From the IMG/VR virus record IMGVR_UViG_3300049793_000099, positions 1 through 64,000 of that record: 64,000 nucleotides of DNA, one strand, 5' to 3'. A model generated the notes under the pieces. It ran no database searches and was not told the DNA's origin. It saw only the letters and a list, made by a program, of their open reading frames with translations. Below, piece by piece: positions 2,805 to 8,221 of the stretch. The number at the start of each line of letters is the position of its first letter. Position 1 is the stretch's first letter. Both the position numbers and the translations under genes were made by a program. The DNA is from a virus.

Positions 2805-3059
2805 TTATATTTTTGATATATCTAAAAAAGTGAATCTATAAGATTCTGTTGCTTTTGAATGTTTAATAGATTCGTCATATAAAGGATCATATTGTATTTT
2901 AAAATTAACTTTATACTCTTTACCATATTCTCCACTTTCTTTTAATCTCTTTACATAAACATCCCAATCAACCCAATCACTTTCTGTCCACCATTCAGTA
3001 GCAAAATCTCCTAAATATCCTTTAAAACAAGTTGTACTATATTCTTTAAATTTATCCAT
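2805..3059 (-). CDS. Hypothetical protein
   Basis: Tightly packed co-oriented ORF. Confidence 0.6.
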   Translation of the reverse strand: MDKFKEYSTTCFKGYLGDFATEWWTESDWVDWDVYVKRLKESGEYGKEYKVNFKIQYDPLYDESIKHSKATESYRFTFLDISKI

Positions 3060-3432
3060 CTATAATTTTAAAATTAATATTAATAGTAAATGTTTTATTT
3101 TTTTTATCCATTTGAGGAATATATACAGATGATATTTCATTATTGATTATAACATTAGCTTTTCTAAGCTGACTATATATATTTTCTAAACCTTGTGCTG
3201 TAATACCCAATTCATCTGTAATTAGAATTTTAGTATCATAATCAAATACTGTTTTCCATAATATTTTATTATTAGTAATCTCTTTAGAAAATTGATAATG
3301 ATAATATAATAATAAAGCAACTACTGTATAATGTTGTTTCTGAAGTTTATGAAAAGGTTTTAAAAATTCAATATATCTAAAAAAGAAATTCTTAACTTTT
3401 ACATTTATAACTGCATTTTTAACATTATCCAT
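3052..3432 (-). CDS. Putative winged-HTH protein
   Basis: ITDELGITAQGLENIYSQLRKANVI HTH pattern. Confidence 0.55.
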   Translation of the reverse strand: MDNVKNAVINVKVKNFFFRYIEFLKPFHKLQKQHYTVVALLLYYHYQFSKEITNNKILWKTVFDYDTKILITDELGITAQGLENIYSQLRKANVIINNEISSVYIPQMDKKNKTFTININFKIIDG

Positions 3433-3434
3433 AA

Positions 3435-3764
3435 TTAATATTTAGGTTTAATCTTCCGTTCTTTATTGTATTCAAATATATTAGCAAAAGTTTGTACCTC
3501 GTTCACACTATTACATCTTTGACATATTTCATTACCATCATCATCTACTTCATATTGATTTGGTACAACTAATGTACCACAATGCTTACAAGCAAAGACT
3601 GGTTCTTTATCGTAGTCTTTTGTTTTATTATTCATAATTTCATTTATTTTATCTTTTATATTTTGTACCCATTCGGAATCATAATATGGGAACACGTGCA
3701 TTCTATTTACATACTCAACATGTTTATACAGTTTGTTGAGCTGTTTGAGTATTTCTTTGCTCAT
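3435..3764 (-). CDS. Zn-finger hypothetical protein
   Basis: DYDKEPVFACKHC...CQRC. Confidence 0.6.
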   Translation of the reverse strand: MSKEILKQLNKLYKHVEYVNRMHVFPYYDSEWVQNIKDKINEIMNNKTKDYDKEPVFACKHCGTLVVPNQYEVDDDGNEICQRCNSVNEVQTFANIFEYNKERKIKPKY

Positions 3765-5434: not shown

Positions 5435-6085
5435 TTATTTCCCATAAATAAAATCTAATATTTTACCTACTAAACCACTTCTATGATTTTCTTTCAATTT
5501 TATATGAGCAATTCCTTCTATACTTTTAGATAGTTCTATAGCAAAATCTAATCCTGTAACACCTTCATTAATATCTCTTTGAGATTGATCCCCATTAATA
5601 ATAATTTTACCTGTATTACCTAGCCTAGTTAAGATTGCCTCCATCTCTTTAACTGTAAGATTCTGAGCTTCTTCAACAATTAAAACATCATCAATAGTTT
5701 TACCTCTAATAAACTGTATAGGTAATGCTTGTATTTTACCATTTTTAACAAAATCGTCAATCTTTAATCTATCCATACACTTATATAAATTTTCAATTAA
5801 AGCTTCCATATATGGATTAAACTTATCTTTTAAATCTCCAGGTAAAAACCCTAATGATTTACCTACCTCAACTGCACTTCTAGCAACTAAAAGTTTATCT
5901 ATTTGTTTAGTATTTAAAAAATCTAATGCTGTTACAGCTCCAACAAGTGATTTACCAGAACCAGCTCTTCCTGTAATAATTGTAACCTGATTTTCAATAA
6001 TTGTCTGTTTAGCTAATTTTTGTTCTTCATTAAGTTGAACATTATATTTTATATCACTCTTACGTACTCTGTTTGCTTGATGCAT
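5435..6085 (-). CDS. phoH: PhoH-family ATPase
   Basis: GRAGSGKS, LGFLPGDL..K, FIRGKT, EEAQN, LTRLG, GDQSQRD, HRSGLV. Confidence 0.95.
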   Translation of the reverse strand: MHQANRVRKSDIKYNVQLNEEQKLAKQTIIENQVTIITGRAGSGKSLVGAVTALDFLNTKQIDKLLVARSAVEVGKSLGFLPGDLKDKFNPYMEALIENLYKCMDRLKIDDFVKNGKIQALPIQFIRGKTIDDVLIVEEAQNLTVKEMEAILTRLGNTGKIIINGDQSQRDINEGVTGLDFAIELSKSIEGIAHIKLKENHRSGLVGKILDFIYGK

Positions 6086-6086
6086 A

Positions 6087-6635
6087 TTATTTATTTAAAT
6101 TGTTAATTTTCAATCTTTCGAAATCTTTTCTATATAAAACTACATCATCTCCTTCTAATATTCTTTTAATTTCTTTAGGATTGAGACCTAGTTCTTTATA
6201 TTTAGAAACCCAGTTATCATTTTGCTTTTTAAGTTGTTCTATTAAAATAGTATAATCTAACATAGTTTTTCTAAAACTACCTTCGATAGATCTATCACCT
6301 AAATGAAATAATATCCAATCCAAATCTTCACACAATATAATCTCTTTCTTACATTCAAATAAAAGAAAAGTTCCTGCTGATGCAATATAACCAGTTAGAT
6401 ATATTTTAATATCTGGATGATTATTAATAAAATGCAATAGTATTCTCATTGCATGTGGATTACCACCAATAGTTGTAAAAAATAAATCAATTGCTTTATA
6501 TTCAGTTAATTTATCAATTAATTCTTGTACTGTTTCAGAATCTATTTCGTTTTCGAAATGATGTACATATCTTTGAATTTCTTCTGATGATTCTAATTCA
6601 TCTAACAAAGCATTTATTAAATCTTCCTTCACCAT
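6087..6635 (-). CDS. clpP: ClpP-like serine protease
   Basis: T.GG, GYIASAGT (catalytic Ser), ILFH (catalytic His). Confidence 0.75.
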   Translation of the reverse strand: MVKEDLINALLDELESSEEIQRYVHHFENEIDSETVQELIDKLTEYKAIDLFFTTIGGNPHAMRILLHFINNHPDIKIYLTGYIASAGTFLLFECKKEIILCEDLDWILFHLGDRSIEGSFRKTMLDYTILIEQLKKQNDNWVSKYKELGLNPKEIKRILEGDDVVLYRKDFERLKINNLNK

Positions 6636-6659
6636 ATATCTTATATTTTAATTATAATA

Positions 6660-6667
6660 CAAAGATA
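6660..6667 (-). promoter_or_regulatory. Bacteroidota -7 element (TATCTTTG)
   Basis: TAnnTTTG 25 nt upstream of the clpP ATG. Confidence 0.7.
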
Positions 6668-6754
6668 ATAAATTATTTTGACATACGCAAGTTTTTTATC
6701 AATTATTTTTCAATAAAATGTTAAAATAACTTAATTTAGGTGGTAATTAGACAT

Positions 6755-6785
6755 AAAAAAACCTACTACAGTTAAGTAGTAGGTT
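6755..6785 (-). terminator. Intrinsic terminator
   Basis: aacctactac/gtagtaggtt 10-bp stem followed by a U-run on the minus strand. Confidence 0.75.
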
Positions 6786-6990
6786 GTAAATTATTATATT
6801 CATTTAGTTTATTCAGTAATTTCTTCTCTTTAAGAATATTTACTAATTGGGATTTATTTAAATTATAAGATTTAGTATAGTTGTGTAATTCAATATATCC
6901 AACATTACTTTGGATTTGAAATTGAATCACTTTAATGAATTCATTCACCCTTTTTTGATATGATCTCATATCTTTATCATTTTTCACCAT
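6772..6990 (-). CDS. 72-aa hypothetical protein downstream of the structured leader
   Basis: ORF lying between the leader and the terminator. Confidence 0.5.
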   Translation of the reverse strand: MVKNDKDMRSYQKRVNEFIKVIQFQIQSNVGYIELHNYTKSYNLNKSQLVNILKEKKLLNKLNEYNNLQPTT

Positions 6991-6999
6991 ATTATTTAA

Positions 7000-7325
7000 A
7001 TTTGGACTTAAATTAAAGCTAAGAATCCCCTAGACAAAAATTTTCTTAAATTTTCAAACGATATATCACTATTCGCTTTAACTTAATAACCTTATATGAT
7101 TGCCGTTCGTCTGCTATTAAGCTTCACCTTCATGATACCCCAGTATTATATCATCCAATCAATTTCAGTTCCTTCTCTTGAAGTTTAAAGTCTGTTTTGT
7201 AACTACCGGAGAAACCTCATCCATTATATTTGTATATTATTTCAATACTATAGATTACTATCCGATGTCTAGTGGACTAATACTTTCGCCTCATCCACGG
7301 TATTCTATTTTCTAGAATGTTACAG
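7000..7325 (-). ncRNA. Candidate large structured RNA / 5' leader
   Basis: Own TATCTTTGCA promoter, no ORF, at least seven complementary segment pairs, including a crossing pair. Confidence 0.55.
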
Positions 7326-7327
7326 TG

Positions 7328-7335
7328 CAAAGATA
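7328..7335 (-). promoter_or_regulatory. Bacteroidota -7 element (TATCTTTGCA)
   Basis: Consensus match. Confidence 0.75.
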
Positions 7336-7411
7336 CAACATTTATTTGATAATTCCTAGTAAAAAGTGATTTATTTTACATAAAATGTTACTCATCTATA
7401 GCGTTTAGGTA

Positions 7412-7627
7412 TTATTTAATATCATTTAAATTATAATATCTATTATCAATTTCCTCAGGTAAAACTTCATCTAGCCATTTCCTACCATAATCTTTTGTTT
7501 GCACAGATGGTTTTCTAATCCATATATTATCAATTAGTTTACTATAATCTCCGTTATTATGAAGAATATTTTTACTTTTAAATACTTCAGCAATTGATTG
7601 TGTTATAATTTCATCAAAATCTTTCAT
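7412..7627 (-). CDS. Hypothetical protein (likely start MKDFDEII at 7627)
   Basis: ATG preceded by an A-rich leader and a TATATTGCA promoter-like element. Confidence 0.45.
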   Translation of the reverse strand: MKDFDEIITQSIAEVFKSKNILHNNGDYSKLIDNIWIRKPSVQTKDYGRKWLDEVLPEEIDNRYYNLNDIK

Positions 7628-7846
7628 AAATTTATTATTTAATATTTTATGCAATATACGAAATATATTTGACAATTCCAAATTTTTTGGGAAATTTTTT
7701 TAAAAATTTTATTGATCGTGATTGATAAATAACCTAAAACCTAACCCCCACTCTTTTCAAACTTTGGGAGGTACTCCGTACTTCATTATACTAATCAGAA
7801 TTGTAAATGTCATGACTCGACAGCAATTCATAATACATATCATACT

Positions 7847-8221
7847 ATGTCTACAATTTTCAAACCAGTTGCAAACGAAGCTACTGGAAAAACAGATTTC
7901 AACTTTCCTGCTGAGTTAGTATCCATCTCTGATAAAGTTATGGAAAACTCTAATGGTACTAAGTATGTACTAGGTAATGTGAGCTTCACATATCCTAATG
8001 GTACACCAGCTAAGGCTGTTACTACACAGATATTTGCTAAGTCATTAGCACATGGTATCAAAGTAGGCTCTACATTATTATCTACATTATCTAAAGATGA
8101 TGAGGGTAGAATGTGGATTAGAACATCACACTTACCTGCTGGTAACAACATCGATACAGATGCATTTGGGTCTATGTTTGACGAAGTTGTTGCTCAACCT
8201 GCTGTTGCAGTAGAAGCATAA
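7847..8221 (+). CDS. First gene of the plus-strand block; beta-rich, possibly OB-fold/SSB-like
   Basis: Less AT-biased codons, alternating beta pattern, acidic/Ala tail, own terminator. Confidence 0.7.
   Translation: MSTIFKPVANEATGKTDFNFPAELVSISDKVMENSNGTKYVLGNVSFTYPNGTPAKAVTTQIFAKSLAHGIKVGSTLLSTLSKDDEGRMWIRTSHLPAGNNIDTDAFGSMFDEVVAQPAVAVEA

Follow-up and report, generated by a model that had tools for sequence, protein, structure and literature searches.

The int-alpA RNA motif, which is curated in Rfam, is an orphan riboswitch-like leader found near the integrase and AlpA genes of mobile elements, and both the HK022 put RNA and the pLS20 conAn leader are processive antitermination RNAs. An invariant core combined with covarying stems is the usual signature of riboswitches, ribozymes and protein-binding regulators, and to our knowledge few such structured RNAs have been described in crAss-like phages or in the mobile elements of Bacteroidota. 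Two long intergenic regions of the crAss-like Cellulophaga phage phi14:2 are already transcribed at the earliest time point, at levels above most genes, and their RNA stays abundant (10.1101/2020.03.07.982082). Two ORF-poor stretches of the phi14:2 genome (KC821624), at 1620-1983 and 2905-3590, probably correspond to these published long non-coding RNAs. The first of them, with a tRNA-like T-arm sequence inside it, precedes a 63-aa zinc-ribbon-like ORF.

Here we analyzed 64 kb of viral DNA (the window), the first part of an IMG/VR phage genome that is complete at 96.9 kb and bounded by direct terminal repeats; the giant ORFs and the relatives of this phage identify it as crAss-like. The locus under study resembles the phi14:2 regions in being an ORF-poor stretch of some hundred bases in the early, left region of a crAss-like phage of aquatic Flavobacteriia, and its layout of an RNA followed by a small ORF recalls that of phi14:2 1620-1983, without homology between the two. 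The cases differ in what supports them, as transcription was measured in phi14:2 and no structural model exists there, whereas the window RNA has a covariation-backed structure and its transcription is predicted.

Organization of the transcription unit

The coordinates of the unit and its parts are collected in Table 1. As stated in the original prediction, which was made from this one sequence, the unit is headed by a promoter; it is of the Bacteroidota type, and all sister phages keep this element. A ten-base promoter word (7337-7328) forms part of the longer promoter motif, and the spacing of the promoter predicts a transcription start at ~7326-7324, right at the 5' strand of helix P0 of the RNA domain described below. 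The extended motif is present in three minus-strand copies (7690-7650, 7349-7328 and 6681-6660) that head successive leftward units, with the last of these belonging to the genes downstream of the 72-aa unit, and it is similar to the tripartite middle promoters of phi14:2, which are transcribed by the host polymerase. The roughly 330 ORF-free and GC-richer nucleotides reported behind the promoter were confirmed: under translation table 11 there is no ORF of 45 aa or more on the minus strand from 7325 to 6991, and the GC content of the leader is 31-36% versus 20-25% in the flanks. The 72-aa ORF and the terminator that were said to follow are likewise present, and no terminator lies between the leader RNA and the ORF. 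Metatranscriptome contigs cover 7036-7178 and 7201-7335, with one piece running on through the promoter; because they extend over the promoter, these RNA-library contigs may be DNA-derived, and transcription of the unit is predicted.

Just downstream of the unit, the minus strand encodes a relative of a ClpP-like protease (6087-6635; phrog_32912, with weaker matches to ATP-dependent proteases) and, at 5435-6085, a PhoH-like ATPase. ARAGORN found no tRNA or tmRNA gene in the 64-kb window, nor did Rfam report a tmRNA there at gathering score; one sister phage carries a clear tmRNA (L009:6020-6382, plus strand; Rfam RF00023, 66 bits).

Comparison of the 72-aa ORF with one variant, from which it is separated by 20 synonymous and 7 non-synonymous differences, indicates a real gene under purifying selection. 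The protein family is tiny (10 representatives in 1.84 billion), and no Pfam family scored above cut-off. An AlphaFold2 model of the protein consists of four helices (pLDDT 90.2) with weak matches to HTH folds, and on this model the product is possibly a small HTH protein. No match was obtained by tblastn in phages or by scans of viral and metagenome collections with the 72-aa protein alone; an alignment that included distant members then identified a second phage contig, L158.

Table 1. Position of the transcription unit, its elements and RNA helices in the window, with examples of the RNA that fills the same slot in sister phages.
Feature	Position	Strand	Details
Transcription unit, whole	7326-6755	minus	Promoter, ~335-nt leader, 72-aa gene, terminator
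Promoter, Bacteroidota -33/-7 type	7349-7328	minus	Exact match to the extended motif; second exact copy at 6681-6660
Conserved five-helix RNA domain	7193-7326	minus	R3 114.4 bits, E 3e-20, model positions 1-150 of 150; the window is one of the 12 R3 training sequences, so its score is partly by construction
P0, closes the domain	7324-7319 with 7203-7198	minus	4 of 6 pairs change on both sides; 96% of cells pair
P1 hairpin, abuts P0 directly	7318-7313 with 7307-7302	minus	6 of 6 pairs change on both sides; 98.7% of cells pair
P2 hairpin	7298-7294 with 7276-7272	minus	6 of 6 pairs vary on both sides in the family; 88.7% of cells paired
P4*	7265-7261 with 7210-7206	minus	100% of cells pair; two pairs compensated in the divergent L187 and L188
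P3 hairpin, within P4*	7248-7245 with 7235-7232	minus	100% paired; 2 of 4 pairs compensated
3' leader part, phage-specific version	7192-6991	minus	~85% identical between the two phages
72-aa gene, downstream of the leader RNA	6990-6772	minus	19 clusters of relatives at 86-91% identity in public assemblies
Intrinsic terminator	6785-6760	minus	Sole terminator-like site in 6500-7900
Sister-phage slot RNA, example	L008:3029-3210	minus	Alignment A3, model R1
Sister-phage slot RNA, example	L003:3435-3626	plus	Alignment A3, model R1
Sister-phage slot RNA, example	L004:3620-3801	plus	Alignment A3, model R1

A conserved RNA domain in two phages and in Bacteroidota

Taken alone, the sequence has no more perfect inverted repeats of 5-8 bases than dinucleotide shuffles do, and its whole leader folds with a z-score of -1.46 for the minus strand and +0.22 for the plus strand. 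Since these single-sequence statistics do not rise above chance, the pairings listed in the original prediction are in themselves no evidence, and the case rests on relatives of the RNA. The 9-mer described as repeated on the transcript is at chance level, as 37% of shuffles contain a repeated 9-mer, and a pattern scan for its two copies returned unrelated matches only. The helices of the whole-leader minimum-free-energy structure were dropped for a comparative model, with five of nine variant positions in predicted pairs breaking them.

The second phage carries, behind the same type of promoter, a gene that is 63% identical in DNA and 42% in protein to the 72-aa ORF, while its leader is 82% identical to that of the window over 281 nt. 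Similarly, over the 367 nt of promoter and leader a ~91% identical environmental variant departs from the window by no more than 30 differences, and 20 of about 39 synonymous sites in its ORF differ. Being non-coding and yet more strongly conserved than the gene it precedes, the leader is under selection of its own. The same comparison bears on whether the stretch could be a decayed or recoded protein gene, or simply non-functional spacer DNA. One 76-aa minus-strand frame (7276-7046, with four TGA) does open if TAG or TGA is read as a residue, but environmental variants fall at its codon positions 1, 2 and 3 in numbers of 1, 4 and 4, a non-coding pattern on which the frame was rejected; with a leader far better conserved than synonymous sites and with strong covariation (see below), this explanation is hardly credible.

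Bacterial relatives emerged from a 19-base word common to both phages, which has 12 matches in a one-per-species set of bacterial genomes. Ten of these are in Bacteroidota, namely two Maribacter isolates, MAGs of Crocinitomicaceae, Salibacteraceae and Flavobacteriales, and one further Bacteroidota MAG, and all ten share with the phages a nearly invariant block of ~70 nt. The matches L160 and L163 lie inside coding DNA and were discarded as chance. A scan of viral and metagenome collections with a 24-mer, the last two bases of which vary, found no relatives. A covariance model of the core (R2), built partly from window positions 7283-7131, recovered one copy per genome, and in the family of genome G003 it added one further member, with the RNA present in 5 of 58 genomes. 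It also detected two divergent copies, L187 and L188, in one Flavobacteriaceae genome (G347), with a match in 2 of 151 sampled genomes; R2 had been built without these copies and scored them at 101.5 and 74.6 bits. Across the phylum, 150 genomes gave one weak, unconfirmed match, and two weak R2 matches (L177 and L178, about 29 bits) that were not recovered by the whole-domain model R3 were not counted as members. With so few of the sampled genomes matching, the RNA is sporadic, as expected of mobile-DNA cargo. Besides the window, the family as found extends to a second phage contig and to no fewer than 13 Bacteroidota genomes, the bacterial members being mostly one closely related group and the independent lineages numbering about eight. 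The original prediction had recognized no family and proposed an Rfam search; this search (cmscan, Rfam 15, 4227 families) gave no match in the window at gathering score, none inside 6995-7325 with E allowed up to 10, and none in the second phage or seven bacterial loci; an eighth locus, L171 (5300-5950), yielded noise only.

The domain has a nested fold, in which P0 encloses P1, P2 and P4*, and P4* in turn encloses P3 and a core of ~70 nt that 12 sequences keep with little or no change. R3 gives scores of 96-160 bits to 13 sequences, including 135 bits to L186, a sequence from outside its training set. In the R3 alignment of 13 sequences, which is fitted to the model and in this way favors the structure, 96.5% of cells pair versus 74.4% after shuffling and at most 45% with slid partners, 20 of 27 pairs change on both sides (shuffles 11.4 ± 1.8, with 0 of 500 reaching this number), and the covariation score is 0.623 versus 0.211 shuffled and at most 0.13 slid. 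A plain, unfitted MAFFT alignment of 11 sequences, in which the two phage rows are partly out of register, points the same way: pairing extends to 95.2% of cells, both sides change in 12 of 33 pairs, none of 500 shuffles reaches the covariation score, and slid partners pair in less than 50% of cells. Loose-rule searches for P0 and P2 in each sequence were not significant against shuffles, and column-wise covariation counts were used. G-U pairs are frequent in the pair tables, as fits an RNA of the minus strand and not its complement.

Among the individual helices, P0 is also predicted by single-sequence folding in the window and in both Maribacter copies. P2 shows two compensatory changes between the two phages, and its 15-nt loop, the sequence of which is shared with one bacterial group, contains a mini-hairpin with a GNRA-type tetraloop. 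A local hairpin modeled at first for the 3' part of the core in R2 was contradicted by the divergent L187 and L188 and was replaced by the long-range P4*. The L188 copy is without hairpin P3.

These results sort the seven pairings that had been listed from the single sequence. Four of them are family-wide helices with covariation, namely P0, P1 and P2 at the positions in Table 1 and a four-base pairing near 7207-7210/7261-7264 that corresponds to P4*. The other three were refuted, unsupported or uninformative. The pairing 7030-36/7266-72, which had been taken as one half of a pseudoknot, loses four of its seven pairs in the second phage and is refuted; one of its arms falls within the invariant core, and environmental variants alter positions 7033 and 7034, the partners of which sit in that core. 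Because this crossing pairing fails and the supported structure is nested, the description of the RNA as pseudoknotted is unsupported. Both the second phage and environmental variants disrupt a 7-bp stem at 7082-88/7115-21, and the pairing inside 7131-7153 is conserved and offers no informative changes. The structured RNA of ~320 nt that had been envisaged is therefore structured and conserved over ~134 nt and not over its full length. As judged from its relatives, this first part of the leader (7326-7193) is an RNA family absent from Rfam 15. The broader proposal of a large non-coding RNA or an RNA plus small-protein unit is supported, in that a covariation-backed RNA and a small gene apparently under purifying selection form one cassette from promoter to terminator.

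The remaining 200 nt of the phage leader, at its 3' side, hold almost no informative covariation. A small hairpin at 7183-7172 has one compensatory change between the two phages, and a local domain at 7162-7048 stands out when folded alone (z about -2.5), with an inner stem that is broken in relatives. This part of the leader also contains a G-run segment (about 7036-7018 in the window) that bacterial versions have too. It is located 90-170 nt downstream, and in most sequences the combined P1 3' strand and P2 5' strand form their best duplex with it; measured against a shuffled strand, 10 of 13 sequences give this duplex a z-score close to 0, and the window and both Maribacter copies give one of about -2. 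That the segment might serve as a switch, or expression platform, in competition with the domain is offered as an idea only.

Bacterial islands and cassette exchange in sister phages

The bacterial copies have a recurrent context. ORFs come immediately behind the RNA, on its strand, in every lineage examined; in the bacterial ones these are a small ORF of 60-86 aa and then an HTH_17 gene (excisionase- or AlpA-like) of ~70-80 aa, and no sense-strand terminator separates RNA and ORF in the window, L170 or L171. The small ORF differs between bacterial lineages, and the phage protein has no homology to the bacterial small ORF or to the HTH gene. Different lineages have unrelated proteins in first place behind the RNA, so it is the RNA that is shared and portable. 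The RNA unit sits at one end of small integrative islands of aquatic, Flavobacteriia-type Bacteroidota, set among housekeeping genes. One island encodes a tyrosine integrase and another a large serine recombinase, a ParB-methylase fusion is found in one and an HNH nuclease in two, and in one island three large ORFs of 983, 424 and 568 aa suggest, by their size and order, a putative type I restriction-modification system. Some island copies are remnants of ~2 kb. An example is the ~2.3 kb of island left between gapA and glmS in L179 (G004:C1, 8000-9900), where a frameshift disrupts the small ORF but the RNA ahead of it is intact and, at 181 bits, scores highest with R2. In G347, each of the two divergent RNAs (L187:950-1740 and L188:959-1692, both minus) is followed by a near-identical pair of genes, a 64-aa ORF and a 70-aa excisionase-like HTH gene, with ordinary chromosomal genes beyond; the two look like duplicated minimal modules or island remnants.

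A different picture is presented by the sister phages. Ten sister-phage loci, with flanking proteins 57-92% identical, align with the window up to ~6760, at the terminator, and again from ~7322 (promoter); the 560 nt between these points are replaced, and the promoter is 81-94% conserved. In one metagenome run, contigs of the window type and those bearing the other RNA have the promoter in common and part ways at 7326-7328, from which we conclude that the stretch from start to terminator is swapped as a block. The same slot in the sister phages holds a structured RNA of ~185 nt with covarying stems and several invariant motifs, of which 24 distinct copies were collected from at least 24 related phage contigs. 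This RNA (model R1) and the window RNA are alike in promoter, flanks, terminator position, support from covariation and absence of an Rfam match. They are unrelated in sequence and structure, and the R1 units are without an ORF, the RNA standing alone with its own terminator. In L019, the ~185-nt RNA comes directly after a tRNA-like 3' half in place of the promoter. With filters off, R1 reached at best 10.4 bits in 6600-7500 and matched nothing in the whole 96.9-kb genome, a scan of the window for the R1 invariant motifs stayed at chance level, and R3 had no match in the sister loci. Neither nhmmer nor BLAST found homology between the sister loci and the region, and direct DNA homology to the 1-kb region was absent from 50,697 phage records. 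The slot behind one phage promoter is thus a site at which whole RNA cassettes are exchanged.

The original prediction considered a link to replication or packaging, for which we find no support: the closest sister phages are without the cassette, and the bacterial relatives head an integrative-island operon. Conservation of a DNA-level site more generally, such as an origin, a packaging or attachment site or an operator array, would fit an element near the strand switch in the phage and at one end of the bacterial islands, and would fit a nearly invariant core. The compensatory changes that keep five helices, with G-U pairs common, fit single-stranded RNA and not duplex DNA, however, while the islands use unrelated recombinases of the tyrosine and serine types and the cassette is dispensable in sister phages, all of which make a DNA site very improbable.

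Position also raises the prospect that the domain modifies the transcribing RNA polymerase, allowing processive antitermination, on the pattern of HK022 put or the leader RNA of the pLS20 conjugation operon, through the terminator into downstream genes. It is located at the extreme 5' end of the first operon of mobile elements, right after the promoter, and in the phage a terminator and further leftward genes come next. Yet those genes have a promoter copy of their own, sister phages do without the domain, and no Rfam family matches it in sequence or structure; we regard antitermination as improbable.

In a further alternative, the domain would form the body of a non-coding RNA that is stable and acts in trans, with the small ORF merely co-transcribed. 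Such an RNA could serve as a decoy, a sponge or a protein-binding RNA when the phage takes over its host or when phage and island are in conflict, and the invariant 70-nt core suggests a binding surface. Stand-alone RNAs with their own terminator in the same slot and an intact RNA ahead of a broken ORF agree with this account, as do the early abundant non-coding regions of phi14:2 (10.1101/2020.03.07.982082), the role of which may be in trans. Set against it are the constant orientation and ORF adjacency, the lack of a terminator after the RNA in three lineages, the absence of a complementary (antisense) target in the phage's own genome, and the lack of homology to the phi14:2 regions, as R1 and R3 found nothing in the first 14 kb of that genome and BLAST and nhmmer gave no match. 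On balance, a trans-acting RNA is a possible, if unlikely, explanation.

Predicted function and relation to known leader RNAs

The constant orientation, the missing terminator and the invariant core flanked by covarying stems are best accommodated by a cis-acting regulatory leader with the domain as its sensor, a reading to which we assign a probability of roughly 0.45 and the mechanism of which is predicted. The position of the RNA is that by which riboswitches and cis-acting leaders are recognized, being 5' untranslated and on the same strand as the gene with no terminator before it, where co-transcription is deduced from sequence. As the downstream proteins differ, the input is likelier to be a common host or element factor than a downstream protein. 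In the proposed mechanism, the domain at the 5' end of the transcript would bind such a factor, either a small molecule or a protein, and binding would determine how well the message of the downstream small regulator is translated or how stable it is. Phage and islands would thereby tie an early decision to one cellular signal. The whole transcription unit (Table 1) travels as a cassette.

A more specific version of the cis-acting sensor leader is that the domain represents a new riboswitch-like class, shared by lytic crAss-like phages and integrative islands (possibly phage satellites), that gates a small regulator. We hold this version to be doubtful. If true, the class would respond to a single host signal, such as a nucleotide messenger of stress or infection, and phage and island would compete for, or eavesdrop on, the same cue; as a variant, the phage copy may be a captured island leader that acts as a decoy. 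Irrespective of mechanism, an RNA common to a lytic phage lineage and to islands in which every surrounding protein is different points to the RNA as the selected, portable part, and this sharing points to a common host-cell input. Two of the carriers are cultivable Maribacter isolates (Maribacter arcticus DSM 23546 and Maribacter sp. ACAM166), making function directly testable.

A search of the open literature found no paper describing the RNA family. Its closest parallels in layout are the leaders introduced at the outset. Like int-alpA, the window RNA is a structured RNA in the 5' leader of a small gene of the regulator or excisionase type, with stems that covary around invariant junction nucleotides; unlike a member of that motif, it matches none of the 4227 Rfam families. 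Like put and conAn, it is a promoter-proximal structured RNA at the head of a mobile-element operon, in one case together with a small protein, whereas it has no sequence or fold similarity to them and the phage genes downstream have their own promoter. Structured leader RNAs of mobile elements are a familiar category, to which this RNA adds a new family, one that stands out by being common to crAss-like phages and chromosomal islands.
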